Source: an uncultured Parcubacteria group bacterium
Lineage (GTDB): Bacteria > Patescibacteriota > Patescibacteriia > UBA9934 > CAMTUG01
Assembly: GCA_947084965.1 (NCBI GenBank)
Contig: CAMTUG010000001.1
Coordinates: forward strand, 211,914-275,913
DNA length: 64,000 bases
Direction: 5' to 3'
Shown: one piece after another, positions 9,804 through 30,046 of the stretch
Position numbering within the stretch: the first letter of the stretch is position 1
How the letters are laid out: each line of letters begins with the position of its first letter
Notes under the pieces: generated by a model
Databases searched by the model: none
Seen by the model: the letters and a program-made list of their open reading frames with translations, nothing else
What the model was told of the DNA's origin: nothing
Made by a program: the position numbers and the translations under genes

Positions 9804-10564
9804 AGACGCTCGTCGCCAACTGGAAGATGCACTTGACGGTGCGCCAGTCGGTCGCCTTGGCGAAGGTGTCCGTTGCTGCGTTGCGTGGTAAAACGGCGCT
9901 GCCTGAGGTTATTCTCGCTCCAAGTTTTCCAGCGCTCGAAGCGGTGCACCGGGTGATAGCGAAAAGTCGCCTTGGCCTCTGCGCTCAGGATGTTTCCTTT
10001 GAAGACGCCGGCGCCTTTACCGGCGAAGTTTCTCCGCGACAACTCAAAGATCTCGGAGTCACCCATGTGATCATCGGTCACAGTGAACGCCGAGCGATGG
10101 GGGAAACGGATGCGACGATTAACAAGAAGGTGATCGCTGTGCTGGCTGCCGGAATGACGCCGATTATCTGCGTTGGGGAAAGGAAAGAGGAAAGAGGAAA
10201 GAGGAAAGAGATCGTCACCCGTCAAGTTAAAGCCGCGCTGGCGACACTGAAGACCCGGGCCAAGGAACACCTTGTTTTCGCTTATGAACCGATTTGGGCG
10301 ATCGGCACGGGTGATGCGGCGACTCCAGAAGATGCGGTTGCCATGCATGCCTGCATCCGGGAAACGGCGCTTGGGGCCATTGACGGACTAAAAGAAAAAC
10401 AACTGCGTGTGCTGTATGGTGGAAGCGTCAACGGAAAAAATGCGCAGAGTTTCTTGTGTGAAGATCAGATTGACGGATTGCTCGTCGGCGGGGCCAGTTT
10501 GAAACCTGTCGAATGGAAGGCGATTATCACCGCTGCGATCAAGATTCAAAATGGGAAACGTTAA
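9800..10564 (+). CDS. tpiA: triose-phosphate isomerase
   Basis: NWKMH, IIGHSERR, ICVGE, AYEPIWAIGTG and YGGSV motifs. Start overlaps the M16 stop (ATGA). Contains an in-frame (AGGAAAG)4 tract at 10181-10210 encoding RKEERGKRKE. Confidence 0.9.
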   Translation: MKTLVANWKMHLTVRQSVALAKVSVAALRGKTALPEVILAPSFPALEAVHRVIAKSRLGLCAQDVSFEDAGAFTGEVSPRQLKDLGVTHVIIGHSERRAMGETDATINKKVIAVLAAGMTPIICVGERKEERGKRKEIVTRQVKAALATLKTRAKEHLVFAYEPIWAIGTGDAATPEDAVAMHACIRETALGAIDGLKEKQLRVLYGGSVNGKNAQSFLCEDQIDGLLVGGASLKPVEWKAIITAAIKIQNGKR

Positions 10565-10565
10565 T

Positions 10566-11351
10566 ATGCTCTCCCTCTGGATTCCGCTCGGTATCATCAT
10601 CCTGTCGGTCATCCTTCTGCTCGTCTTGGCGATCAGAAAGATTCCGTATTTGCGCGCGCTTGATGTCCTTTCTGCACCGGAGCAAAAGGCTAAAGAGTTG
10701 AAACGTGCGCTGATCGCCTCGCGCCTTTCGCGTGCTGGGGCAAAATACGGAGGACAGATGAAGAAGATTTTTTCGCCGATCGTTGGAGCCGCCAAGTCGA
10801 GCGGAAGAAAGGCGGCAGAAAAAGTTTCTGCCCTTGAAGAACGCTATCAAAAGCTTCGGCGGGAAGCGATGGGACCGCACGCTCTGACTCCAGCGATGAT
10901 TAAAGAGATGATCAGTAAAGCCGAAGCGTTCATTAAGGATGAGCGATACGGCGAAGCGGAAAAAGCGTTAATCGAAGTTCTCTCCCACGATGCCAAGAAC
11001 GCTGAGGCGTACGAAACGCTCGGTTATCTATTCATGCTTCAGAAGAATTACGATCAGGCAGAAGAGACGTATAACTTTATCTTGAAAATTCAGCCAGGAG
11101 ACGCCTCGGTCCTAACGTCATTAGGGGAAATTGAATTGGCTCGAAATAATCCGGAGAAGGCGAAACAGTACTTCGATAAGGCGGTGAAGAAGCGTCCGCA
11201 TAATCCGAAGTATCTCGATTTTCTGCTGGAAGCATCGATCCAGGCTAAGGATGCTTCCGCAGCTCGCTGGGCGCTCGAGCAACTTCGCGGGGCGAATCCA
11301 GAAAATAAGAAACTCGGCGAATTTGAAGAGCGCATTCAATCGATTTCATAG
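10566..11351 (+). CDS. TPR-repeat protein with N-terminal transmembrane anchor
   Basis: N-terminal TM helix (LSLWIPLGIIILSVILLLVLAI), then about three TPR-like helical repeats (AEAYETLGYLFMLQKNYDQAEETYNFILKIQPGD...). Confidence 0.6.
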   Translation: MLSLWIPLGIIILSVILLLVLAIRKIPYLRALDVLSAPEQKAKELKRALIASRLSRAGAKYGGQMKKIFSPIVGAAKSSGRKAAEKVSALEERYQKLRREAMGPHALTPAMIKEMISKAEAFIKDERYGEAEKALIEVLSHDAKNAEAYETLGYLFMLQKNYDQAEETYNFILKIQPGDASVLTSLGEIELARNNPEKAKQYFDKAVKKRPHNPKYLDFLLEASIQAKDASAARWALEQLRGANPENKKLGEFEERIQSIS

Positions 11352-11365
11352 CTCGCGCACGAGCG

Positions 11366-11400
11366 ACCCTTTACAAAAGGGTCGTTTGTGTATAAGCTTG
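11366..11400 (+). terminator. intrinsic terminator after TPR gene (CGACCCTTtacaaAAGGGTCG + T-run)
   Basis: Perfect 8-bp stem followed by TTTGTGT. Marks the left edge of the high-GC island. Confidence 0.55.
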
Positions 11401-11452
11401 GACATCCTGTCTACCCAAATCAGGATGCCCCTGAACCTTCCCGAGGTGCCCC

Positions 11453-12589
11453 ATGTTCATCGCGCCGTTCATCCTTTCGCTCTTCGCTCCGGCCTTCGCC
11501 GAGGAGCCCGTCCCCGTCGTCTCGCCGGTCGCCGCGCCCAAGACCTACATCCTCGTCGCCGGGACGAGCGAGTACCAGAACGCGCCGGACCTGCCGGGCG
11601 TCGAGGGGGCGACCAAGGACTGCCAGACGATCGGTGCTCGGCTGATCGAGGTCGGGTTCACCACCGAGCAGGTCACCGCGCTCTGCGGCGACAAGCTCAC
11701 CAAGCCGGCGGTCGTCGAGGCGGTCAACACCCTGGCGCCCCGACTTGTTGCCGGGGACACCTTCGTCGTCGTCTGGATCGGCCACGGCGGCCAGGACCCG
11801 AAGGACGAGACCAAGAAGTACTGGCAGGGCTACGACGGCAGCTTCGTCGTCGATCCGGCCGCCCCGACCAACTACTTCACGACCGGGATCACCCCGACGA
11901 TGCTCACGAAGGCGATCAAGAGCAAGACGCCGGCCGGGACCCCGATCGTCCTCATGACCGACACGTCGGACAGTGGGTCCTACAACGGGATCCCGCTCAG
12001 CGGGCCGGTCGCCGACACCTTCGAGAAGGAGGTCTACATGATCTCCCCGGGGATGGCGCTTGGCAAGTCCGGGGCGCTCACGAAGTCGTTCATCGGCTGT
12101 CTCGAGCCCCGCATGCGCTACGGCGTCGCCGAGGAGCACACCGCGATCGAGGTCCAGGCCTGCATGTCGAACGGTCTCAGGGCCAGCAACATCGAGTCGT
12201 GGCTTTCCAGCGCGGACTGGGATACGATCACCACGCTCATCTGGTTCCCGCCGCTTCCGCCCGCGCTTCCCAGGCCACTCCCTGAGCAGACGGCCAGGAA
12301 GCCGTCGACGGTGAAGCCGGCGATGCGCTGGGGCGGTGTCGCCCTCGCCGTCATCGGTGGCGGTGGAGCAGCCGCGTCGTACCTCCACGCGGACGGCATC
12401 GCGGGACAGATCGCTGACGAGAACGGCGTCGTCGATCCCCGGGACGCGGCCGCGCTCGAGGAGTACAACCTGTTCAAGACCCTGACCTACGTCGGCTACG
12501 GTGTCGTCGGCCTCGGTGCGATCAGCTTCGGCGGTTCGCTCGTCGTCGCTCCCGCCCCGACCGGTGTCACGGTCAGCGGAACGTTCTAA
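11453..12589 (+). CDS. caspase-fold (peptidase C14-like) domain protein with signal peptide and C-terminal TM segments; catalytic Cys position occupied by Ser
   Basis: YILVAGTSEY...DCQTIGARLIEVGF...VVVWIGHGG...PIVLMTDTSDSGS matches the caspase/metacaspase strand order with His retained. DTSDSG sits where D-A-C-H-S-G is expected. N-terminal MFIAPFILSLFAPAFA signal. Gly-rich hydrophobic C-terminus. About 68% GC. Confidence 0.55.
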   Translation: MFIAPFILSLFAPAFAEEPVPVVSPVAAPKTYILVAGTSEYQNAPDLPGVEGATKDCQTIGARLIEVGFTTEQVTALCGDKLTKPAVVEAVNTLAPRLVAGDTFVVVWIGHGGQDPKDETKKYWQGYDGSFVVDPAAPTNYFTTGITPTMLTKAIKSKTPAGTPIVLMTDTSDSGSYNGIPLSGPVADTFEKEVYMISPGMALGKSGALTKSFIGCLEPRMRYGVAEEHTAIEVQACMSNGLRASNIESWLSSADWDTITTLIWFPPLPPALPRPLPEQTARKPSTVKPAMRWGGVALAVIGGGGAAASYLHADGIAGQIADENGVVDPRDAAALEEYNLFKTLTYVGYGVVGLGAISFGGSLVVAPAPTGVTVSGTF

Positions 12590-12614
12590 CCGTTCCGACC
12601 TCTCTAACGTGAAG

Positions 12615-12650
12615 CCCCCGACTGCAGACGGCAGTCGGGGGTTCGCATTT
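12615..12650 (+). terminator. intrinsic terminator (CCCCCGACTGC agacg GCAGTCGGGGG + TTCGCATTTTGT)
   Basis: 11-bp perfect stem and a T-rich tail just 3' of the caspase-like gene. Confidence 0.6.
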
Positions 12651-12694
12651 TGTCCGAGGTCCGGAGAGCGAGTGGCGCGCTCCGGACCGTCTGA

Positions 12695-13528
12695 CTAGCG
12701 GAAGTAGAGGGTGTGGTTGGACGCCTTGGGGCGTTGGCCGGCCAGTCGGTCGAACTGGGTGGGGACGAATCCCCCCAGGTTGACCCCCTGGAGACGCAGG
12801 GCCGAGGTTGCGTCGACGTCGCCGACCAGCCAGGCGTTCCACAGCGACTCGGCGAAGTCGCCGCCGCGGGTGCGCAGGGCACTCTCGATCACGGGCCAGG
12901 CTTCGTCCGAGTGCCAGTGATCGAACGGCGTGTACTCCGGCGGGAAGGTTGCCGGGAACCCGAACAGGGCGCGGAACCAGTTGGGGATCGCGCGGCGGGT
13001 TGCGATCTCCTGGTTGCGGAGATCGACCTTGGTGCGGTTCTCGCTCCAGAAGTCGATCTCGATGAAGGGCGTGTCCGTATCGCCCCCCTTGCGAACCGGG
13101 CAGAAGAAGATGGAGAACCCCGCGCTCACCTTGGCGCCGCGAAGGATCAGGAGGTTGAGCAAGGGTTCGAGCCGGGCCTTCATGCCCTTCTCGTCTCGCA
13201 TCTTGTCCAGGATCTTCGGGTGCTTCGGTCCGGCGCTGATCACCCAGCTCCCGAGCGGCACGGGGCCGGTCGTCTTGAGATCTTCGAGCACCGCCCGGAC
13301 CTCGACGAGTGCCGGGACGGACACGGGCTTCTGCCGTTCGCGGAACGGGGTGAGGGTCACCCAGGGCAGGCTCGGGTCGACCTCGTCCTTGTCGATCACG
13401 CGGTCGGTGGGGAGACGCAGGACCCGGCTCTTGTTGTCCGGTCGGTCGATGTCCGGCGTCCGGATGAACGAACGCACTTCGGGTGCGCCCTTCTTGGGAA
13501 CGGCGAAGGGGAGAGATCTCTGGGCCAC
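12695..13528 (-). CDS. hypothetical protein (about 277 aa, high GC), likely GTG start
   Basis: Long GC3-rich frame. The first 35 residues of track ORF 12695..13633 lie in AT-rich promoter DNA. GTG at 13528 is preceded by GAGGT. No recognisable domain. Confidence 0.45.
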   Translation of the reverse strand: MAQRSLPFAVPKKGAPEVRSFIRTPDIDRPDNKSRVLRLPTDRVIDKDEVDPSLPWVTLTPFRERQKPVSVPALVEVRAVLEDLKTTGPVPLGSWVISAGPKHPKILDKMRDEKGMKARLEPLLNLLILRGAKVSAGFSIFFCPVRKGGDTDTPFIEIDFWSENRTKVDLRNQEIATRRAIPNWFRALFGFPATFPPEYTPFDHWHSDEAWPVIESALRTRGGDFAESLWNAWLVGDVDATSALRLQGVNLGGFVPTQFDRLAGQRPKASNHTLYFR

Positions 13529-13589
13529 GGCTACCTCGGGGTTAAGGGTTTGCACATGAAAGCATTTTTTCAAATGAACGTCAATGATT

Positions 13590-13647
13590 ATTGACAATTC
13601 GCTTATTTTCGTGTTAAAGAACCGTTGGCACATTCACGGAGGTCTAG
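13590..13647 (+). promoter_or_regulatory. AT-rich divergent promoter region with TTGACA box and GGAGGT SD for the kinase gene
   Basis: TTGACA at 13592-13597. GGAGGT sits 6 nt before the ATG at 13648. This is the only AT-rich stretch inside the high-GC island. Confidence 0.35.
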
Positions 13648-15366
13648 ATGCAAGAACACCCAACGTCGTTTGGCGAAGGACGCTACCGCGTCGAGCGGCT
13701 GATCGGCCAAGGAGGGATGGCCAGGGTGTACCTGGCCTACGACACCCGGAACCACCGACCGGTCGCGATCAAGGTTCCGAACCCCAACCTGCTCACCCCG
13801 GACAAGGTGGTGCACGTGCGGGCGCGGCACGACAACGAACGTGCGGTCCTCGGAATTCTGGTCCACCCGTTCGTTCCGGCGCTCTACGATCACGGTGAGG
13901 AGCCGTCGGGGAAGGAGAACAACCCGACCACCACGCCCTACATCGTCATGGAGTACGTGCCGGGACGCGACCTCGAAGAGTGTCGGACCGAGTTCGGCGC
14001 ACTGCCGCCTCGGGTCGTCTGTCACGCCATGCTCCAGGTCCTCTCGGTTCTGGCTCAGCTCCACGCCGACGTTCGCGGGATCGTCCACCGTGACGTCAAG
14101 CCGGCGAACATCCGTCTGCGTGCGGACAAGCTCGTCAAGCTGATGGACTACGGGATCGCCAAGGTGCATCGCACCAGGGGCTCTGCCGGCAAGACGATGT
14201 TCCAGCCCAACATGACCCGGAGCGATTCACCGATCGGCACCCGCGGGTTCATGGGGATCGCCCAGATCTCGATGGATGCGGACCTCGGACCGCGGGCGGA
14301 TCTCTACGGCGTCGTGGCCACGATGGTCGCGCTCCTCACCGGCAAGGACCGCGCACCTGATCTGTGGAACGTGAAGGGCGAAGTGCACACTGCGCTCACC
14401 GGTGTGCCGCGGATCCTGCGGCCGATCATCATCCGCTGTGCGAGCGAGGTGATCCCAGACAACCAGAAGGTCACCTCGGCCGAAGAGTGCGCGCGCCTGC
14501 TCGAGGCCCTGATCGCCAAGCTTCCGGAAGATGACAGCGATCGCTTCTGGAAGTGGTTCCGGAAAGAGGGGATGACGATCGTTCCAGACGTCCTCGTGCC
14601 GAGCTCCTGGCCCGGTGGCGACATCGATGAGCACCTGCGTGAACTCCCGTCGGTCGATCGCTTCGTCCCCGAACCCGCGGAAGCGGAAGGGGAACCGGCG
14701 GAGTTCGATGACGAGGGATCGGCCCCGGACGATGAGGAGTTCGTCCCGGCTCGTCGATCGCGAGTCCTGCCCTTCTTCGGAGGGGCGGCTCTGCTCGCGG
14801 CTCTCTTCGGACTCGGCGTCGTGTTCTGGGGTGACGAACCGAGCGTGGTGCAGGAAAGTCTCATGCCGGCTGTCGCGGCCCCATCGAGCGCGGCCGTCAT
14901 CGAGATCGATCGAAGGGATACCCAACCGTCCCTCACCAGGATCGCCACATCGGATCCTGCGCCTTCACCCCCGCCTGAATCGGTCGGCGGTGTCCCAGCG
15001 ATCAACACGCCGCCCACACCAGCCGAACAGACCGATCGTCCGAAGATCGATCGGCCGGTCCGCGATCGTGTCCCGGCAACCGTCACCCCTGCGCCGGTCG
15101 TCACCCCACCCCCTCCGATCCCGGCCCAGGCCCCTCCGGCTCCGGTCGAGGAAGAAGAGAAGGGCACGGTGCGTGTCACGGGCGGAGTTCCGGTGCGGCT
15201 CAAGAAGGGGGGAGCGATCTTCTCCGCCCCGGGCTCGGTCAAGCCGGGCACCTACACGGTCGAGGCACAGTTCGCCGACACCTACACCCCGCAGATGGAG
15301 ATCACCGTGAAGCCCGGGGAGACACGGACCGTCTCCTGCGACCGCGACTTCACGTCCTGCGAATAG
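13648..15366 (+). CDS. Hanks-type Ser/Thr protein kinase, single-pass membrane, with Pro-rich linker and C-terminal PEGA-like beta domain
   Basis: GQGGMARV (G-loop), VAIK, HRDVKPANIRL, DYG (DFG variant), one TM helix (VLPFFGGAALLAALFGLGVVFW), PAPxPPP-rich region, and a terminal KPGTYTVEAQF...TVKPGETRTV motif. Confidence 0.85.
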   Translation: MQEHPTSFGEGRYRVERLIGQGGMARVYLAYDTRNHRPVAIKVPNPNLLTPDKVVHVRARHDNERAVLGILVHPFVPALYDHGEEPSGKENNPTTTPYIVMEYVPGRDLEECRTEFGALPPRVVCHAMLQVLSVLAQLHADVRGIVHRDVKPANIRLRADKLVKLMDYGIAKVHRTRGSAGKTMFQPNMTRSDSPIGTRGFMGIAQISMDADLGPRADLYGVVATMVALLTGKDRAPDLWNVKGEVHTALTGVPRILRPIIIRCASEVIPDNQKVTSAEECARLLEALIAKLPEDDSDRFWKWFRKEGMTIVPDVLVPSSWPGGDIDEHLRELPSVDRFVPEPAEAEGEPAEFDDEGSAPDDEEFVPARRSRVLPFFGGAALLAALFGLGVVFWGDEPSVVQESLMPAVAAPSSAAVIEIDRRDTQPSLTRIATSDPAPSPPPESVGGVPAINTPPTPAEQTDRPKIDRPVRDRVPATVTPAPVVTPPPPIPAQAPPAPVEEEEKGTVRVTGGVPVRLKKGGAIFSAPGSVKPGTYTVEAQFADTYTPQMEITVKPGETRTVSCDRDFTSCE

Positions 15367-15373
15367 CTCAACG

Positions 15374-15400
15374 CCCTCCTCGGTACTCGAGGGGGGCGCT
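15374..15400 (+). terminator. GC-rich hairpin after kinase gene (GCCCTCCTCGgtacTCGAGGGGGGC)
   Basis: Read directly from the sequence. The T-run is weak. Confidence 0.4.
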
Positions 15401-15456
15401 GCATTTATACGCTTGTCATTCCAGGACCGTTCGGGTATATTGACGCGGCAATATTA

Positions 15457-15531
15457 GCCGCAGTAGCTCAGTGGTAGAGCACCTCCATGGTAAGGAGGGG
15501 GTCTCGGGTTCAAATCCCGACTGTGGCTCCA
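15457..15531 (+). tRNA. tRNA-Thr (anticodon GGT)
   Basis: Cloverleaf GCCGCAG/ta/GCTCagtggtAGAGC/a/CCTCCatGGTaaGGAGG/gggtc/TCGGGttcaaatCCCGA/CTGTGGC/t/CCA. CCA is encoded. Confidence 0.85.
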
Positions 15532-15532
15532 T

Positions 15533-15568
15533 GAAAATAGATCAGAAGTTTCTGATCTATTTTCATTT
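15533..15568 (+). terminator. intrinsic terminator after tRNA-Thr (GAAAATAGATCAG aagtttc CTGATCTATTTTC)
   Basis: Perfect 13-bp stem with a T-rich 3' side. Confidence 0.7.
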
Positions 15569-15666
15569 AAGGGTGGGGATTTGAACCGTGGGAAAGGGGT
15601 ACGGGGAAAACGAACACGAGGGAGACCTGTTTGTGTTACAATTAAACAAAGGATGCATGAATATTT

Positions 15667-16677
15667 ATGAAAAAATCGACGCTTACGTATCTTAGTTTGT
15701 TGATCGTTCTTGGCCTGGCGATGGTTACAGGATTTTCTGTGATCAAGGATCGTTTTTTCACATCAGACAATTTGATCGCGGATAACACGAATGAGAGGGT
15801 GTTGAATGCCTTTAGTTGTAATAGCAGTCAAATGTTCATACCCCCGACAAGCGGAGAAGACTTAACGGAGATTCAATTGTATACCGCGCGAAGTGATGAT
15901 GGTGTTACTTTTGCAGATGAACGGGAGTTTATAAAAGGTGCGGGCGTACCAAGTGTGACGCAAGGTGAGGACGGAACGCTCTTTGCTGTTTTCAATTGGT
16001 TCCCATCCTATGCAGAAAATCCAGATTGCTATAACAAAATCGCCATGATGACTTCGAACGACGCTGGTGTTACATGGGACGGTCCGTTCGGTTTATTTAT
16101 CGAAGAGTTCCCGGACGATTATCAACTGCCTTATGATCCTACGATTGCACGAGACGCTGAGGGGAAATTTAGGATGTTTTTCACGACACATAAATTAGGT
16201 ATGGACGAGCCGTTTATTTACGGGAGTGCAGTATCTGAAGACGGTCTTCACTTTACTTATGACGGTATCGTATTTGAAAGTAAAGGTAATCATGTTGTGG
16301 ATGGCTCAGAAATATATTTCAACGGCAAGTGGATTATGATTGCCCCGCTCGCTAAGCAAAACGGCGAGGCCCTTCAGGCGACTTCCATTGATGGACGTTT
16401 GTTTGAGGTGGTGAATAGTAATCGGCCAAAACGCAGTATGTATTGGGTAGGAAATATGGTCGCACTTGCTGACGAAGTCCGTTTTTATGGTTCGTGCGGT
16501 GAAGAAACGGATCTTCGTGGACTTTGTTATAGTGCGACAACGGATGGGAATGTTTGGGATGATCCGGTCCTTACAAACGGTTACGCCGGTGATCCGGGGG
16601 TTGTATATCTGGATGATGGACAGTTCGTCATTATTTATGCAGAGCCTCGTGCGCCTGTCGTACCAATAGAACGATAA
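15667..16677 (+). CDS. secreted BNR/Asp-box beta-propeller protein (sialidase / glycoside-hydrolase-like), low GC
   Basis: Signal/TM N-terminus. S-x-D-x-G-x-T-W/F motifs (SDDGVTF, SNDAGVTWDG, SEDGLHF, TTDGNVWD). About 42-45% GC versus about 50% for the backbone. Confidence 0.6.
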   Translation: MKKSTLTYLSLLIVLGLAMVTGFSVIKDRFFTSDNLIADNTNERVLNAFSCNSSQMFIPPTSGEDLTEIQLYTARSDDGVTFADEREFIKGAGVPSVTQGEDGTLFAVFNWFPSYAENPDCYNKIAMMTSNDAGVTWDGPFGLFIEEFPDDYQLPYDPTIARDAEGKFRMFFTTHKLGMDEPFIYGSAVSEDGLHFTYDGIVFESKGNHVVDGSEIYFNGKWIMIAPLAKQNGEALQATSIDGRLFEVVNSNRPKRSMYWVGNMVALADEVRFYGSCGEETDLRGLCYSATTDGNVWDDPVLTNGYAGDPGVVYLDDGQFVIIYAEPRAPVVPIER

Positions 16678-16803
16678 AAGTGAGCGTCCGACGATCAACT
16701 TTTTAAAACACTGTTGTTGAAGCTCTTTTAGCTTGCCTAGAATAGTCCCTCACCAGGCCTTGCTTTTTAGCTTCCGTTTGTATATCATGCTCACGCAAAA
16801 CAT

Positions 16804-16890
16804 GGGCAGGTACCGAAGTGGTCAAACGGGGGAGACTGTAAATCTCCTGGCTTTACGCCTTCGATGGTTCGAACCCATCCCTGCCCACCA
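16804..16890 (+). tRNA. tRNA-Tyr (anticodon GTA), long variable arm
   Basis: GGGCAGG acceptor pairs with CCTGCCC. Anticodon stem-loop GGAGA-CTGTAAA-TCTCC. Type II variable arm. T-arm GATGGttcgaacCCATC. CCA encoded. Confidence 0.8.
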
Positions 16891-16891
16891 G

Positions 16892-17017
16892 ACCGGTCCG
16901 CAGATTTTGGTCCAGGACTGTGTTGCGGGGCCCTGTCGTCTTGTCGCCGTACGTTTCAGTACGGCTCCTGCGCCGACGTCCCGCGCCTTGTCCTGAACAC
17001 AAAATCTGCAGACCGGC
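16892..17017. repeat. 18-bp inverted repeat (ACCGGTCCGCAGATTTTG / CAAAATCTGCAGACCGGC) enclosing a GC-rich 90-bp spacer between tRNA-Tyr and tRNA-Thr
   Basis: Arms match 16/18. The spacer GC is much higher than the flanks and contains a CCGTACGtttcaGTACGG hairpin. Confidence 0.5.
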
Positions 17018-17027
17018 GCTAAAACAG

Positions 17028-17101
17028 GCCGGCGTAGCTCAGTGGTAGAGCAACACTTTTGTAAAGTGAAGGTCGTCGGTTCAAATCCGACCGTCGGCTC
17101 C
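17028..17101 (+). tRNA. tRNA-Thr (anticodon TGT)
   Basis: GCCGGCG acceptor pairs with CGTCGGC. D-arm GCTCagtggtAGAGC. Anticodon loop tTTGTaa. T-arm GTCGGttcaaatCCGAC. CCA encoded. Confidence 0.8.
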
Positions 17102-17157
17102 AGAGTATTGACGAAATCAGCCCGTTTTGTTACTATCCCAGCACATAAATTTGCCAT

Positions 17158-17313
17158 ATGCCACAGGATCAACGCGCCAAAATGGAATGCACCGACTGCA
17201 AACACGTTGGCTATAACACCACTCGCAACAAAAAGACGCTTAAGGAACGCCTTCAGCTCTCCAAGTTCTGCAAGTGGTGCCGTCACCACACGACGCACAA
17301 AGAAACGAAATAA
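17158..17313 (+). CDS. rpmG: 50S ribosomal protein L33
   Basis: 51 aa, MPQDQRAKMECTDCKHVGYNTTRNKKTLKERLQLSKFCKWCRHHTTHKETK, with the L33 zinc-ribbon pattern C..C...C..C. Below the ORF-track length cutoff. Confidence 0.8.
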   Translation: MPQDQRAKMECTDCKHVGYNTTRNKKTLKERLQLSKFCKWCRHHTTHKETK

Positions 17314-17376
17314 TCAAAAGCCGCCTCCGGGCGGTTCTTGATTTTCCCCCAAGGAGTCGGTATAGTTCCGCCGCAT

Positions 17377-17451
17377 AGGGGTGTAGTGAAATGGTTATCA
17401 CTAGGGTCTCCAAAACCCTCATTCAGAGTTCGAATCTCTGCGCCCCTGCCA
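17377..17451 (+). tRNA. tRNA-Trp (anticodon CCA)
   Basis: AGGGGTG acceptor pairs with CGCCCCT. Anticodon stem-loop AGGGT-CTCCAAA-ACCCT. T-arm CAGAGttcgaatCTCTG. CCA encoded. Confidence 0.8.
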
Positions 17452-19899: not shown

Positions 19900-22800
19900 A
19901 TGTTTAAGCGGTTCGTCTGTCTGCTCGGGGTCCTTTCAGCAGTTTTTATTTTTGCCGGGGCAGAACCGGTGCACGCCGCGGCCTACACCTGGGATGGCGG
20001 GGGATCGACGAATAATTGGAGCGATTGTTTGAACTGGTCGACTAATGTCTGTCCGGTCGGAGCTGATACCGTAACCTTTGATGCCACCAGCACCAAAAAC
20101 GCTTCGATCGATGCCTCATGGGGTGGTTCAATTACGGGAATCACGATCGCCTCGGGTTATTCAGGAACGGTCTCTGTTGATCGTTCATTGGCGGTTAGTG
20201 GCGCATTTAGCATTGCCGCTGGCGCCTTTAACGGCACATCACAAAGCATAGACTTCAACGGGTCAGTGACCATTTCCGGAGGAACATTCACGGCTTCTTC
20301 TGGCTCGATGACTATGGCCGGCGGGTTTACCCATACAGCCGGGGGAACGTTTGCTCACAATAACGGTTCCATCACCATGGACGGCAGTACAGCGTTCACA
20401 TGGAATGTCGCTGTCACCGAGGAACTCTATAATCTCACCATCAACAACACCAGTACATCGGCGATCACTGTTGCGAGCGGCGACACATTGAATGTTAATA
20501 ACACCTTGACCTTCACTGACGGCTCGATCGCGACGGGTACGATCGCCGGTAAAGGGGCGACGATCGTCGTCGACGCTGGATGGGGAACGGGTTCAAACTC
20601 GAGCGGGACGTTGCTTGTGAACGGTGGCGGTGCGCAAACAGTCACCATCGCCCCACAGTCGAACGCCTCATTTGAAGCCTTTGATCAGCTCACCTTGAAC
20701 AACGCCTTAGCATCGATCACAGGGACAGGCGGCGCGGGTGCCATCGGTCTGGATAAGATTACCCTGACCGCTGGAACATTGAACGTTACTGGGTACACCT
20801 TGATCGCCAACGAAACGATGACGATTAACGGCGGTACCTTGACGCTCGGCACGACGGGGACATCGACGATCGGTTCAACCTTCAATCTTTCTGCTGGCAT
20901 CTTCAACGGCGGTTCTGCGACCGTTGATTTTAATGGCACTGTGACGATCTCTGGCGGGACGTTCAACGCATCTTCCGGTTTGCAGACGATGGACAGTAAT
21001 TTCACCCATACTGCGGGCGGGACGTTCAATCATGGCAACGGCTCGATCACGATCGATGGGAGCACGGCCGTGACCTGGGACGTGTCGACCACGGAAAATC
21101 TGTATAATCTCACGATCAACAATACGAGTACGTCAGCGATGACGGTGGCAAGCGGGGATACTCTGAACGTCAACAATAACGCAACATTTACCGATGGTGG
21201 GATTATCACCGGAACGATCGCGGTCAAAGGGCCTGCCGTCTCGATCGGGACAAACTTCGGTTTTTCTGCTTTCTCCAACGGTACTTTGACGATCAACGGT
21301 TCCGGAGCGCAGACGGTGACGATGGCGGTGCTGGCGGGTGCGGGTTTTGAGCCGTTTGATCAGATTATCTTGAATAACGCTGCGGCCACCTTTGGCGGAA
21401 CAGGCGCGGCTGGCACATTAGCTTTCGATAAAGTGACGGTTACTGCCGGTGTCTTTGACATGACTGGCTACACATTTTCGGCCAACGAAGCGGTCGTGGT
21501 CAATGGGGGGACGATGACCATGGGAACGTCTGGAACAAACACGTTTAGCGGCACATTCAGTCTTTCTTCGGGGACGTTCAACGGTGGGTCCGGGAATGTG
21601 AATGACTTTAACAGCACCATCACGATTTCCGGTGGAACGTTCAACGCTTCATCGGCCACAACGACTGCGGCTGGTGACTACACTCACTCGGCAGGCGGAG
21701 TGTTCAATCACAACAATGGGTTGTTTACCATCGACGGATCCTCTGGCTCGACGATTGATATTGGTACCACCGAGACGTTTTACGACTTGACGATAAATAA
21801 CAGCGCCACGACGGCGTTAACGCTCACGAGCGGAACGACACTGAATGTCAATAATGCATTGACGCTGACGGATGGAGGTTGGCTCTCGGGTACGATCGCG
21901 GCTAAAGGGCCAACGACGACGATCGGGGCCGGCTTTGGTTTCGCGACGATCGCCGCTGGTACGCTGACCATTAATGGCGTCGGTGTCCAATCGGTGACGA
22001 TGGCCGCTCTTGCCGCCGGGTTTGAACCCGTTGATCAGCTGACGATCAACAACGCCTCAGCAACCTTGACGGGCACTGGGGCGTCCGGGGTGTTGGCTTT
22101 TGATAAGGTGACGGTCACAGCGGGTTTGTTTGACGCCACGGGATATACGGTTTCCATCAATGAACCGGTTATCATCAACGGCGGTACCATGACCATGGGT
22201 AACTCCGGCACGAATACGTTCAACGGTACCTTCGCTATTTCTTCCGGAACGTTCAACGGCTCTGCTGCGACTCTGGATTTCAACAGTACCGTTACTGTGT
22301 CTGGGGGTATCATGAATTTCTCCTCAACCGTGACGTCGCTGGCCGGGACGTACACCCACACTGCCGGCGGCACGGTCAACTATAACGGCACGACCTTGAC
22401 CATCGATGGGGGCAGCGGCTCAACGTGGGACGTCTCGACCAACGAGACGGTACCGGCTTTGACCGTGGCTAAAACAGGAAGCGCGACATGGACGATCGCG
22501 ACGGGTGACACGATGATCGTTACGGGCACAACGCTTCTTACGGACGGCGAACTTTCTACGGGTGCGATTTCCGCCCGTGGCGACGTAACCGTTTCTTCCA
22601 CCTGGGACGGTGGGGCGGGGACATCCGTTCTCAGCTTGGATGGCTCGGGCGTTGTTGTGATGACCCACACCAACGGCGGCAACAACACGGAGCCAGCAAA
22701 TACCTTGATCGTGAATAATGCCAACGCGACGGTCAACATGCCGGCGACAGGCGCTTCATTTGTCTGGGGGTTGGATATTCGTGCTGGTGTGGTCAATGTC

Positions 22801-25800
22801 AATGGTGGTGATCTGACTGTGGGGAGTACCTATACACAGTCCGGCGGGACATTCAACGGCGGAGCGGGGAGTGTGACTACTTCCACCACGTACACCCTTT
22901 CCGGCGGGACGTTCAATGCGCCAAGCGGCACCTTGAATCTTGTTGATGACTTCACCCATACCGCTGGTGGAACGTTCAATCATAACAACGGCTTGGTGAA
23001 GACGATCAATGCCGTGGATCTTACCTTTGACTTCAACGTCTCTGAGACGTTCTATAATTTTGAATCTTCAAAAACAACGAACTGGCAGACGATCATCACT
23101 TCTGGGGATTCGTTGATCGTCCTGAATACAGCGACCTTGACTGACGGTCGAATCATGACCGGAACACTTGAAATCAAAAATACGTTATCGATCGCATCGA
23201 CGTACGATTACGGCAATGCGAGCCTAACGTTTTCGGGAACGGTCGACCAAACATTCACACTTCCTTCAGGGCAATCTGCTTCCTGGGACATGCCGGCGCT
23301 TACGGTTAACAAGGCTTCAGGTACGCTGACGTTCGGTTCGGATGTGACGTTGGATTGCGGGGGCACGAGTTGCAACCTCGTTTTGCAACAAGGGGTGCTT
23401 TCTCTTAACGGGTTTGGCCTGCGAGTTAATGATTTCTCGATCAGTAATGGAACGTTTATTTCCGGAGCGAGCACGGTTGATATCGATGACGACTTGACGA
23501 TTACTGGCGGAACGTTTAACGCCACGACAGGGACGACCATCATCGGCGGGGATTTTACCCATACCGCCGGTGGGGTGTTCAATCATAATAACGGGACGGT
23601 GGAGTTCGATACGTCAAATGATCAGACCATTAACGTCAATGTTAACGAAACGTTTTATACGGTTCGCATCAGTAAAAACGGTTTTCAACAGACGATTACT
23701 GCGGGGGACACGATTACGGTTCTCGGCAACCTATTGTTGACGGACGGTCGTTTTGGAACAGGAACGATTGATATGCAAGGCGCGGCGACGACCATCGCTT
23801 CAACTTATGACCCCAGTGATGTCACATTGAAGTTCACCGGTACGGCAGCACAGACGCTTGACTTGACCGGAGCGGCCGCCGTATTTGATGGGCCAGTAAC
23901 GATCGATAAGCCTTCTGGCGAAGTTGCTTTGCTCTCTGCTCTGACGATGGACACAAGCAGTCGCACCTTGACGTTGCAATCCGGAACGCTGAATCGGAAC
24001 GGGTTCGCTTTGACTGTCCACCACTACACCCAGACAGGCGGGACGTTCTCAAGTAGTGCGGGCAACGTTGACGTGAACGGTACGTTTACGCTTTCTGGGG
24101 GTACGTTCTCTGCCTCATCTGGAACGACGTTTTTTGGCGGTGCTTATACCCATACCGCCGGTGGAACGTTCGATCACAATAACGGTCGGGTGGAATTTGA
24201 CACCGCGGTGGACATTACTGCAGACGTTATCGGATCGGAGACGTTTTATGATCTGGCCATTACCAAAGCTGGGAATCTGGTCACGTTGGGGGCGGGCGAC
24301 ACGTTGATCGCCACCGGCGATCTGTATCTCACAGATGGTCGTTTTGGTGGCGGCACGATCGAAGCACGCGGCAACGTGACCGTGGCCTCGACGTTTGATA
24401 TTGGTAATGCTGCCTACACGTTTACCGGGAGCGCTGTTCAGACCTTTACTCTCGGAGTTGCTGCCAACATCGACGGCGACGTCACTGTGAACAAGAGCGG
24501 CGGATCGGTGGTACAGGTCGGAACGCTTACCCTGAACGCCGCATCACAAGATCTGACGATCGTTTCCGGAACGTATGATTTGAACGGCTCCAATCTCACT
24601 GTGAACGGCAGTAGCGGTACGTTAGTTGTACAGAATGGGGGTGTGCTTCAGCTTCAAGGTGGAGAAGTGGTCACTCTGAATGTCAGTAACCCGACGTTCC
24701 AGGCCGGAAGTTTGGCTCGCTACACCGGAACGGTCGGCCCGTATACCCTCAAGAACTGGACGTACAGATCGATCACGGTCGACGGAGGGGCAGCATCTGT
24801 TTTTGCTCTGCCAGGGGCGCTTTCTCTCCCTGCAGATCTGACGATCACTTCTGGAATCGTAAGTTTGGGGGGCAATGCGTTGACCGTTTCAGGAACGTTC
24901 TCAAATGACGGCACATTACGATTACGCGGGAACGAAACGGTGACGCTCACCAACGATGCTGATTCTGGAACGGTGGAATATGTCGGCGACGGCGATGCTG
25001 CGGCCGATGCCTATGTTCTTCAGAACTGGCCGTACTACCATCTCACCTTGGCCTTTGTGGACGCCCTTGATTCCGCGTCAGCCGGTGGAACACCGCTCGA
25101 CATCAATGGATCGTTTACGCTCAGCGCGGGGACGTTTACCGCTCCAGCGACGATGACCGTAGCTGGAAATTTTGCCCATAGTGGTGGGGTGTTCACGCAT
25201 AACAACGGTACGGTGGTTCTTGATGGGTTGAATCAGACCGTCTCAGGGACAACGACCTTTAATCACTTCACAAAATCTGTTAGTTCAGCAGCGACCCTGA
25301 CTCTTCCGGCAACAGCGACCCAGACGTTTGTCGGGACGATGACGCTGACGGGTGCGAGCGGGCAGCGTCTTTCCTTGCGCAGTTCTACGCCGGGGGTGCA
25401 GGCGCTGATCGATCCACAAGGGACTCGGACCGTTTCCTATCTCGACGTCCAAGACAACAATAACGCCAATGCAACGATGATCGTCTGCTCGACGGGGTGT
25501 GTTGAAGGCACCAACGTGACAAATTGGTCGTTCACCACGCCAGGGATCACAGTCGGAGCCATCTCCGGTGACACCACTGAAGCGGGGGGTACCGCCACCT
25601 TCACCGTCGTTCTCGAATCTGAACCAACCGCAGACGTGACGATCGGCGTGAGTTCTTCGGACGTAACCGAAGGGACGGTTGATCCGGCCTCCCTCACCTT
25701 TACTTCGCTCAACTGGGATACTCCACAAACGGTCACGGTTACTGGCACCGATGACTTCGTGATTGATGGCAGTGTTGTCTTCTCGATCGTTCTTGAGCCA

Positions 25801-28557: not shown

Positions 28558-28559
28558 TT

Positions 28560-29279
28560 ATGGGCATTGCTCTGAAGATCGATACTCTCCAGAAAACGTA
28601 CAAAACCGGGACGCAGGCGCTCAAAGGTGTGTCCTTTACAGTGCAAGCCGGGGAGATGTTCGCCCTGCTTGGGGCGAACGGGGCAGGGAAGACGACCTTG
28701 ATCGGCGTGCTGTGCGGGCTGGTTGCCAAAACAGGCGGCAAGGCCGAGGTATTCGGGATCGATATCGATGCGGAGCCGGAAGAGGCCCGCCGCCTGATCG
28801 GCGTTGTGCCGCAAGAATTCAACTTCAATATTTTTGAGCGGGTCATTGATATCGTTGTCGATGCTGCCGGGTATTACGGCGTGCCGCGTTCGGTCGCCAC
28901 TCCGCGAGCAGAGAAACTACTGAAAGATCTCGGGCTCTGGGAAAAGCGTCACGTTGCTTCGCGTACGCTCTCGGGGGGAATGAAGCGTCGATTGCTGATT
29001 GCACGTGCCTTGGTGCATCAACCGAAGTTGTTATTGCTCGACGAACCTTCCGCGGGTGTGGACGTGGAGTTGCGTCGTGGGATGTGGGAGTTCATCAGCA
29101 GCTTGAATGCGCAGGGGACGACGGTGATCCTTACGACGCATTATTTGGAAGAAGCAGAAAAGCTGTGCAAGCGCGTGGTGATTTTGAAGCAGGGTGTCGT
29201 TGCCAAGGAAGGGGAGATCGCTGCGCTTGTTGCCGCGTCCGGAGAAAAGAATCTTGAAGATTTCTATTTAAGCGTATGA
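28560..29279 (+). CDS. ABC transporter ATP-binding protein (ABC-2 exporter type)
   Basis: Walker A GANGAGKTT, signature LSGGMKRR, Walker B LLLDEPSAGVD. ATG at 28560 follows the giant gene's stop. The stop overlaps the permease start. Confidence 0.85.
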   Translation: MGIALKIDTLQKTYKTGTQALKGVSFTVQAGEMFALLGANGAGKTTLIGVLCGLVAKTGGKAEVFGIDIDAEPEEARRLIGVVPQEFNFNIFERVIDIVVDAAGYYGVPRSVATPRAEKLLKDLGLWEKRHVASRTLSGGMKRRLLIARALVHQPKLLLLDEPSAGVDVELRRGMWEFISSLNAQGTTVILTTHYLEEAEKLCKRVVILKQGVVAKEGEIAALVAASGEKNLEDFYLSV

Positions 29280-30046
29280 TCCGTCCTTCCTTGGTGGGTG
29301 CGGCGACGATCTTCCGCAAAGAAACGGTACGCGTGTTTCGTATTTGGACGCAGACGATTCTACCATCCGTTGTTTCTCAGACGCTCTACTTTGCGATCTT
29401 CGGCGGGATCATTGGTTCAAAGATCGGGGAAGTCGGCGGAGCAAGTTATGCCGCTTTTCTCGTTCCTGGTCTGATCATGATGTCATCGATCACCAACGCT
29501 TTTAGTAACGTCGCGAGTTCGTTTTTCGGTGCTAAGTTTCAACGCTCGATCGAGGAAATTCTCGTTTCGCCGATGAAGCCGTGGGCCGTGCTGGCAGGAT
29601 ACATCTCCGGTGGGGTCATGCGCGGCATGGTCGTCGCCTTGGCGGTTTTTCTCGTCTCGATCGCCTTTGTTCACCCTACAGTTGCTCACGCAGTTCCACT
29701 GATCTTCTTTATCTTCATTACCTGTCTCATCTTCTCTCTTCTCGGGTTTTTGAACGGGATGTTCGCGCGCAAGTTTGATGACGTGGGAATCGTCCCGGTT
29801 TTCGTGCTCACGCCGCTCACATATCTCGGCGGGGTATTTTACAGCTTGGATTCACTGCCGTCGTTCTGGCGCTCCCTGTCCTACGTCAATCCGATCGTCT
29901 ATATGATTGATGGGTTTCGTTACGGGTTCGGTGGTGTTGCCGCAACGTCGGTGCTTGCAAGCGCCGTTGTGCTGACTCTTGTCGCTGTCATTCTTGTCGT
30001 GATCAACCTTACATTGCTACGTCGCGGAATCGGCCTCAAATCATAA
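29276..30046 (+). CDS. ABC-2 family transporter permease
   Basis: Six predicted TM helices. Translationally coupled to the ATPase (ATGA overlap). Confidence 0.75.
   Translation: MIRPSLVGAATIFRKETVRVFRIWTQTILPSVVSQTLYFAIFGGIIGSKIGEVGGASYAAFLVPGLIMMSSITNAFSNVASSFFGAKFQRSIEEILVSPMKPWAVLAGYISGGVMRGMVVALAVFLVSIAFVHPTVAHAVPLIFFIFITCLIFSLLGFLNGMFARKFDDVGIVPVFVLTPLTYLGGVFYSLDSLPSFWRSLSYVNPIVYMIDGFRYGFGGVAATSVLASAVVLTLVAVILVVINLTLLRRGIGLKS

Follow-up and report, generated by a model that had tools for sequence, protein, structure and literature searches.

A 64,000-nucleotide stretch of DNA from an uncultured Parcubacteria group bacterium (contig CAMTUG010000001.1; the whole stretch is referred to below as the window) carries at positions 11453–12589 a gene for a protein of 378 residues, the query of this study. 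As judged by profile, alignment and structural model, the query has a genuine caspase/metacaspase fold (clan CD, family C14), but a serine occupies the position of the catalytic cysteine. The reading we favour, with reasonable though not high confidence, is that it serves as a non-catalytic, exported binding module of the caspase fold. The gene and the element that follows it are:

11453–12589, forward strand: pseudo-caspase gene, 378 residues plus stop, supported by the open reading frame (ORF) translation, a Pfam Peptidase_C14 match above cut-off and 16 full-length homologues with a common architecture.
12613–12653, forward strand: hairpin resembling an intrinsic terminator, with 13 pairs (9 of them G-C) and then a T-rich tail, from a consensus scan and the sequence itself.

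The ORF opens with an ATG, the first start codon available downstream of an in-frame TGA; GAGG lies 8 nucleotides ahead of it, and the hairpin starts 24 nucleotides past the stop codon. The DNA around the gene is 66–68% G+C and holds long spurious ORFs in other frames; the frame used here is confirmed by the Pfam score and by the homologues, and 11453–12589 is, on this evidence from the sequence, a real gene. Along the protein, YILVAGTSEY occupies residues 32–41, DCQTIGARLIEVGF residues 56–69, VVVWIGHGG residues 105–113 and PIVLMTDTSDSGS residues 164–176, all of them within or overlapping the following domain:

11540–12247, forward strand: caspase-fold domain (residues ~30–265), seen as alternating strands and helices at high confidence in the AlphaFold2 model and in Foldseek and profile matches.

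Residues 34–173 match Pfam PF00656 (Peptidase_C14) with an expectation value (E) of 1.1e-7 and 32.2 bits, above the curated gathering cut-off of 21.4, and a phmmer search of the PDB with the query finds GSU0716 (PDB code 3bij) at E=7.6e-4. The AlphaFold2 model, for which a family alignment of 17 sequences was used, has a mean predicted local distance difference test score (pLDDT) of 79, with values of at least 87 over most of residues 31–170. With this model Foldseek listed 50 matches in the PDB, of which the top ones are all of the caspase fold (the paracaspase MALT1, GSU0716, a Candida metacaspase (7qp0), and caspase-6, -9, -3 and -7); the best E is 8e-8, and the probability is 1.00 in 50 of the 50 listed matches. 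The predicted structure has the caspase-hemoglobinase fold that characterizes family C14 of clan CD. The caspase/metacaspase fold proposed in the initial annotation is thus borne out by the Pfam match, the model and Foldseek, and the modelled fold is not a generic Rossmann-like one. Two further profile matches, to NCBIfam caspase_w_EACC1 (21 bits, cut-off 140) and to the PADLOC 'caspase' model (17.8 bits), are too weak for use. A six-frame hmmsearch of the window revealed no second caspase-domain gene that might encode a partner protease.

The positions of the catalytic dyad can be located by alignment as follows:

11783–11785, forward strand: codon CAC of His111, in the catalytic His column; opposite His in 144 non-family stretches, and His is kept in 7 of 16 family members.
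11966–11968, forward strand: codon TCG of Ser172, in the catalytic Cys column; opposite Cys in non-family matches and aligned to the Cys of DSCHSG in yeast Yca1.

These assignments draw on an exhaustive HMMER scan of 1.84 billion representatives, which gave 166 matches at E≤1e-3; the 150 listed ones were re-aligned by phmmer. Among these 150, some 47 non-family stretches reach the column of Ser172, and 32 of them have Cys opposite it, invariably within D-[AST]-C-[HY]-S-G. When the query domain is aligned by MAFFT with 11 canonical and 4 non-canonical matches (alignment A2), Asp56, Asp102, His111, Gly112 and Asp170 are invariant; this alignment too has Ser172 in the Cys column. Searched against the PDB, the A2 profile matches Yca1 (4f6o; 1.7e-29) and GSU0716 (3e-25), and also AtMC4, the Candida metacaspase, AtMC9, TbMCA2 and MALT1; a profile of the family only and P0034, a canonical caspase match, found no match in the same database. 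The D-a-C-h-s-G column of the A2 profile falls on DSCHSG of Yca1 in 4f6o and on DSAHSG of a second Yca1 entry, 4f6p, whose alanine we take to be the mark of a catalytic-Cys mutant. The phmmer pairings, the MAFFT alignment and the Yca1 profile alignment identify D170-T-S172-D-S-G175 as DxCHSG, the Cys of which is replaced by Ser. None of the alignments (phmmer pairwise, A2, or the A2 profile against the PDB) places a Cys in the catalytic column of the query. The initial annotation had noted that the dyad His is retained in GHG and that the nucleophile position reads Ser; both observations stand, and the profile alignment assigned no Cys from elsewhere in the protein to the catalytic position. 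Of the features of family C14, the query has the profile score above the curated threshold, the predicted fold and the catalytic His of G-H-G after strand β3 (His111), and lacks the catalytic Cys expected after β4 in D-x-C-H-S-G or Q-A-C-R-G, where Ser172 is found. Judged from these residues, it is a structural homologue of family C14 and not a catalytically competent member.

The relatives of the query support the same conclusion. Sixteen of them (P0002–P0015, P0020 and P0021) align end to end at 22–38% identity, P0010 and P0011 being truncated and P0011 also apparently frameshifted. In the family plan, an N-terminal hydrophobic stretch that closes with A-x-A leads into the caspase-like domain, which a Pro-rich linker joins to a hydrophobic module at the C-terminus. 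In the 15 relatives that reach it, the Cys column holds Ala (10), Arg (2, probably an alignment shift), Met, Ile or Val, with neither Cys nor Ser in any of them, so that Ser172 is unique to the query among family members. The His column is lost in 9 of the 16, where it is occupied by Thr, Pro, Ala, Gly, Gln, Tyr or Arg. The closest relatives, P0002, P0003, P0004 and P0011, all have His, and the three that reach the Cys column all have Ala in it. Since the TCG codon of Ser172 is one base away from the Ala codon GCG, the Ser in the query is, from codon and family comparison, best taken for a neutral substitute of the usual Ala. The family tolerates losing both dyad positions and would for this reason be independent of catalysis; on the alignments its members are pseudo-caspases and not a Ser–His variant of clan CD. 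Of the two explanations offered in the initial annotation, a pseudo-caspase that serves for binding or as a scaffold is therefore favoured, given the uniqueness of the Ser and the replacement of His in 9 of 16 relatives. The other, a rare Ser–His variant of the clan CD fold, is disfavoured, because the conservation of Ser among orthologues that such a protease calls for is seen in 0 of 15 relatives.

The family was recovered only by the exhaustive HMMER scan. Four of the five members scanned against Pfam (P0002, P0005, P0014 and P0020, the query being the fifth) fall below every model. A word-indexed protein search returned the query itself alone when the whole query was used and two relatives only when the family alignment was used. 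Genome contigs scanned with the single query protein gave no relative, and metagenome contigs scanned with the closest pseudo-caspases gave nothing.

Outside the dyad, two acidic residues of the substrate pocket are preserved:

11618–11620, forward strand: Asp56, first Asp of the S1 pocket (TbMCA2 Asp95); Asp in 151 non-family matches and in 10 of 15 family members.
11960–11962, forward strand: Asp170, second Asp of the S1 pocket (TbMCA2 Asp211), two residues ahead of the Cys column; Asp in 44 non-family matches and in 14 of 15 family members.

In TbMCA2, Asp95 and Asp211 make up the S1 pocket with which metacaspases bind basic residues (PMC6426788). A further motif, G-P-x-A at residues 184–187, just past the pseudo-active-site hairpin, is near-invariant in the family, and is also present in the non-canonical matches P0049, P0075, P0147 and P0151, which read D-A-[VSA]-H. 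Four cysteines, at positions 57, 78, 216 and 237, are specific to the family, whereas in ordinary caspase homologues position 57 is Ala or Val, and position 78 is Leu, Thr, Ile or Val. Cys57 and Cys78 are found in every family member, always as a pair, even in the distant P0016 and P0026; P0003 has lost Cys216 along with Cys237. Because the cysteines co-occur as pairs in a protein that appears to be exported, Cys57/78 and Cys216/237 probably form two disulfides. As far as can be judged from this pattern of conservation, the family is under selection for its architecture, its pocket residues and its Cys pairs.

The predicted export signal, linker and anchor are arranged as follows:

11453–11500, forward strand: signal-peptide-like N-terminus (residues 1–16, MFIAPFILSLFAPAFA, then EE), a putative assignment from a hydrophobic core followed by A-x-A, in a region of low pLDDT.
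12248–12325, forward strand: Pro-rich linker (residues ~266–291, FPPLPPALPRPLPEQTARKPSTVKPA), read from the sequence, with pLDDT <50 at 275–285 and a length that varies in the family.
12326–12586, forward strand: C-terminal anchor module of ~95 residues (residues 292–378), from AlphaFold helices and hydropathy, homologous in all family members.

In the relatives, a basic residue stands before the hydrophobic stretch of the N-terminus, and A-x-A, followed by Glu, Asp or Gln, after it. In the anchor module an R-W-x-G motif is followed by a Gly/Ala-rich hydrophobic helix 1, a loop of ~30 residues that holds the invariant Tyr338, a hydrophobic helix 2 and a tail, P-x-G-V-x-V-x-G-x-F, which forms the C-terminus in nearly all family members. 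The two Gly-rich hydrophobic segments lie at ~293–313 and 343–364, where AlphaFold predicts long helices (287–322 and 329–360), and segment 343–364 passes the Kyte–Doolittle threshold. The initial annotation had described a signal peptide and these two segments, and the N-terminus, the hydropathy and the helices are in keeping with its view that the protein looks exported and anchored; we likewise consider the query to be probably exported and bound to the membrane.

The anchor module itself has no Pfam match, and a word-indexed protein search with its alignment returned nothing. Since it is found on an unrelated N-terminal region in P0036, it can be regarded as an independent unit, apparently a portable membrane anchor that lacks an annotation. 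Modules of this kind ending in G-x-F/W recur in other proteins (P0036, P0016 and P0026). A C-terminus of similar appearance was seen by eye in P0049 and P0147, whose pseudo-caspase domains read D-A-[VA]-H, and was missed by a local search with the module. We also considered the terminal G-x-F as an outer-membrane β-signal, which is unlikely since the preceding segments model as helices and the cell belongs to the Patescibacteria. Patescibacteria cells are not known to have an outer membrane.

Taken together, we propose that the pseudo-caspase would be exported by the Sec pathway, its signal peptide being removed after AFA, and would be tethered to the outside of the cytoplasmic membrane, the cell probably having no outer membrane. 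In the most economical topology, the C-terminal two-helix hairpin would sit in the membrane, its loop being short and cytoplasmic and the tail short and external, and would carry the ectodomain outside the cell on the Pro-rich stalk. The ectodomain would keep the fold, the acidic pocket formed by Asp56 and Asp170 and, in this sub-clade, His111, but no nucleophile, and may bind, without cleaving it, a ligand that bears a basic side chain; a peptide or a segment of a protein is the most plausible candidate.

The gene is the first of three in an island of distinct base composition:

11400–15400, no strand: GC-rich island of exactly three genes, 62–68% G+C and 0.80–0.91 G+C at third codon positions (GC3), from the composition profile and per-gene GC3.
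12695–13633, reverse strand: middle gene, a conserved partner protein of about 275–312 residues, with orthologues at the same position in two other loci (L087 and L088).
13648–15366, forward strand: Hanks-type Ser/Thr kinase of 572 residues (Pfam Pkinase, E=1.8e-28), with full-length orthologues of 571 residues in L087 and L088.

The flanks of the island are 43–55% G+C, and its borders are sharp. GC3 is 0.91 in the pseudo-caspase gene, 0.85 in the middle gene and 0.80 in the kinase gene, compared with 0.42–0.68 in the other genes measured in the window and about 0.42–0.66 in those next to the island. The island ends just ahead of tRNA-Thr(GGT) at 15457–15531; no direct repeats flank it, and no integrase is found among its genes or their neighbours. 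A separately assembled Logan contig (L001) covers 10181–15493 with 0 mismatches, crossing the left junction fully and the right junction as far as the tRNA, and this identity across the island argues against an assembly chimera. Directly after tRNA-Thr(GGT) there is a perfect 17-nucleotide palindrome (15531–15566), and after it an inverted copy of the tRNA T-arm (15573–15587, versus 15507–15521); at this edge of the island, the two could represent a terminator and the remnant of a tRNA.

The middle gene has no match in Pfam or PADLOC, and metagenome contigs scanned with an alignment of its protein gave nothing. Its orthologues in L087 and L088 show 29% (E=3e-29) and 28% (E=7e-14) identity, respectively. 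As delimited here, it starts at 13633 on the reverse strand, 14 nucleotides from the kinase start at 13648 on the forward strand. Because its first ~35 codons are AT-rich and have no counterpart in the orthologues, translation probably starts further inside; the two genes would then diverge from a promoter region of ~100 nucleotides, as in L087 and L088. The kinase consists of a kinase domain, one transmembrane helix at ~373–392 according to hydropathy, a Pro-rich stretch and a C-terminal β-rich domain of ~70 residues with two conserved Cys.

L087 and L088 are the loci of the two close homologues found on contigs long enough for neighbours to be seen (P0003 and P0004, respectively). In both of them, as in the window, a pseudo-caspase gene on the forward strand, a gene for ~270–300 residues on the reverse strand and a gene for a 571-residue kinase on the forward strand occur in the same order and orientation. 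Pairwise identities across the three loci are 32–35% for the pseudo-caspases, 24–29% for the middle proteins (E 3e-12 to 3e-29) and 28–33% for the kinases, which align over their full length, the C-terminal Cys pair included. That synteny is kept at 24–35% identity suggests, from gene order and sequence, that the trio is functionally coupled. In this sub-clade, the pseudo-caspase and the extracellular domain of the kinase may form a surface sensing unit, with the middle protein acting on the cytoplasmic side. We advance only tentatively the wider idea that the trio is a transmembrane signalling module in which the dead caspase-fold ectodomain is a basic-peptide receptor or co-receptor controlling the kinase, encoded by a GC-rich cassette mobile into genomes of the ultra-small bacteria of the candidate phyla radiation (CPR) and used, perhaps, for host sensing.

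Several observations weigh against parts of this picture. With respect to export and anchoring, the N-terminus of the query has no basic residue, and segment 293–313 is only borderline hydrophobic (~1.27 by hand calculation). With respect to catalysis, the query itself has His111 and a potential Ser nucleophile, which makes residual activity possible. The middle protein has no recognisable domain, and its single-sequence model, with a pLDDT of 32.6, is unusable. The kinase linkage rests on three loci, and distant family members occur in other contexts with no kinase adjacent: P0006 and P0009 adjoin ftsZ and nrdR on the opposite strand, P0020 and P0012 are near ychF, and P0005 lies elsewhere. 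Because of these other contexts, the kinase would not be essential to the core function of the family, and its coupling is, on the loci compared, specific to the sub-clade of the query, P0003 and P0004.

Two of the other contexts can be described more closely. In L086 (6432–10237), the family gene stands between ftsZ and an ftsA-like gene, identified from its translation, on the opposite strand and with a much higher GC3; in L089 (3225–6530), it stands next to ftsZ and nrdR, and the contig ends at the family gene. This arrangement looks like insertion into a division cluster. GC3 of the family genes is 0.77–0.81 in L082 (8001–9098), L086 (8001–9233) and L089 (5316–6530), compared with 0.36–0.59 in housekeeping neighbours, which may result from repeated lateral transfer from high-GC donors or from some other bias.

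An alternative to the signalling module is that the protein acts independently of the kinase, as a surface adhesin or envelope scaffold for host attachment or for binding cell-wall peptides, and that the kinase neighbourhood is an accident of lineage-specific co-transfer. Many Patescibacteria live attached to host cells, and the Patescibacteria origin of the genome fits this proposal, as do the kinase-free neighbourhoods of the distant family members, the use of the anchor module on an unrelated N-terminal domain in P0036, and the separate terminator of the pseudo-caspase gene, which converges on the middle gene. The order and orientation of the trio, retained in three loci at 24–35% identity, are nevertheless hard to explain without coupling, and we regard the kinase-independent role as possible but doubtful.

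An active protease with a Ser172–His111 dyad on the clan CD scaffold is improbable. Both residues stand in the catalytic columns of the query, the S1 pocket still has its Asp56 and Asp170, and His is present throughout the closest sub-clade (P0002, P0003, P0004 and P0011). However, these closest His-bearing relatives have Ala where the query has its unique Ser, so that there is no selection for the nucleophile; the TCG codon lies a single base from GCG, and His itself is missing from 9 of the 16 relatives. Cys-to-Ser mutants of caspases serve as catalytically dead controls, which also counts against such a dyad.

We give a similarly small chance to the trio being an anti-phage or conflict system, i.e., a kinase-based defence with a caspase-like component on a mobile island. 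The island is compositionally foreign and ends beside tRNA-Thr, the kinase matches PADLOC PD-T4-6 models with E down to 4.8e-52, and the pseudo-caspase has its weak match of 17.8 bits to the PADLOC 'caspase' model. The kinase matches, however, cover only the generic kinase domain (residues ~6–234), as those of any Hanks-type kinase would, and the caspase-like protein appears exported and is devoid of a nucleophile, unlike the cytoplasmic effector proteases of defence systems. The neighbours scanned include no integrase or other defence genes, and flanking direct repeats are absent.

Transfer of the nucleophile to another conserved Cys, e.g., Cys57, which directly follows the pocket residue Asp56 and which, like Cys78, is present in every family member and not in ordinary caspase homologues, is highly improbable, since the family cysteines occur as two co-occurring pairs in a probably exported protein, pointing to disulfides, since the required partner His is lost in 9 of 16 members, and since no alignment has a Cys in the catalytic column. 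That the gene is a decaying relic without function can hardly be maintained on the variability of both catalytic positions and the apparent frameshift in P0011, when the architecture, the four Cys, G-P-x-A, the pocket Asp, the anchor Tyr and the terminal Phe are kept in 16 sequences at 22–38% identity and the ORF is intact, with Shine–Dalgarno sequence and terminator.

Elsewhere in the window, a second GC-rich patch at 829–2666 on the reverse strand contains ORFs at 829–1446, 1581–2036 and 2037–2666 with GC3 of 0.94, 0.77 and 0.99, respectively; these ORFs have no significant match in Pfam, and longer ORFs in other frames of the patch look spurious. Four tRNA genes (Thr-GGT, Tyr-GTA, Thr-TGT and Trp-CCA) lie at 15457–17451, and between the first two there is an ORF of 336 residues (15667–16677) with a GC3 of 0.42 and no Pfam match. 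The forward strand carries a single ORF of 2885 residues at 19900–28557 and, after it, the genes for the ATPase and permease of an ABC transporter (28542–30046). Many ORFs in the window are without a Pfam match. BipA encoded in the window shows 66–77% identity to BipA of metagenome-assembled genomes, several of which bear the label Patescibacteria group, while the label of the two best matches, Gammaproteobacteria, is in our view an error; identity to BipA of Candidatus Andersenbacteria is 57–60%. From these comparisons and the scarcity of Pfam matches, the host is a CPR bacterium.

With respect to known proteins, GSU0716 of Geobacter sulfurreducens (3bij) is the solved structure closest to the query by sequence, and by fold the closest are metacaspases of fungi, plants and trypanosomes (4f6o, 7qp0, 6w8s and 4afr) together with GSU0716, with which the query has the GHG and D-x-C-H-S-G positions in common. 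Yca1 and AtMC4 have Cys in the catalytic column, where the query, a predicted exported protein, has Ser; the alignment with 3bij stopped short of that column. Metacaspases are cytoplasmic and regulated by Ca. The top Foldseek match is MALT1, but at 13–15% identity the likeness is one of fold only. In MALT1 and the animal pseudo-caspase cFLIP, caspase-fold domains act as scaffolds or regulators in signalling complexes; both proteins are eukaryotic and cytoplasmic, and have partner domains unlike those of the query.

The reuse of dead proteases as binding modules is already known, and bacterial caspase homologues deficient in the dyad have been catalogued. In the passages of Asplund-Samuelsson et al. 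2012 (PMC3501461) found by term search, 15% of prokaryotic metacaspase homologues are reported to have transmembrane helices and 16% to be without an intact dyad, and many of the membrane-associated ones to carry a helix at the N-terminus, a probable signal peptide; neither the two-helix G-x-F module nor the kinase trio is mentioned in those passages. Since dyad-deficient homologues are thus well documented, a Cys-to-Ser exchange in a bacterial caspase fold is by itself unsurprising. The present analysis contributes a family that is small, highly divergent and mostly overlooked by standard profiles, a predicted extracellular location on a distinctive, unannotated two-helix anchor, and a host genome among the Patescibacteria, in which surface proteins are thought to be central to the attached lifestyle. 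It also adds an arrangement with a receptor Ser/Thr kinase that is kept at ~30% identity in one sub-clade. If the kinase link is functional, it would give a bacterial pseudo-caspase a concrete and testable role, namely ligand capture for the kinase. A literature search for caspase homologues in Patescibacteria returned unrelated gut-microbiome papers only, and the term 'Patescibacteria' does not occur in the orthocaspase survey PMC6426788.

The most similar proteins described are the pseudo-orthocaspases (Klemencic et al. 2019, PMC6426788), including SyOC of Synechocystis (PMC7889975). According to the former study, 8.6% of bacterial orthocaspases are pseudo-variants that keep the fold and the acidic pocket, and in YS, a common type, Ser takes the place of the Cys. 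Like the query, these proteins have a p20-type fold with a substituted dyad, retain both Asp of the specificity pocket and are presumed to be non-proteolytic binding proteins; the two defining features given in PMC6426788, dyad substitution and the two pocket Asp (here Asp56 and Asp170), are both present in the query. The described pseudo-orthocaspases are, however, mostly Tyr-Ser or Tyr-Asn proteins of cyanobacteria, with other types in alphaproteobacteria, whereas the present family is His/Ala (His/Ser in the query) with a variable His. By dyad type (HS/HA) and host, the query thus falls outside the described clades (YS/YN of cyanobacteria, and alphaproteobacterial). Compared with the pseudo-orthocaspases, the four extra Cys, the Pro-rich stalk, the two-helix anchor and the Patescibacteria host are the family's own.

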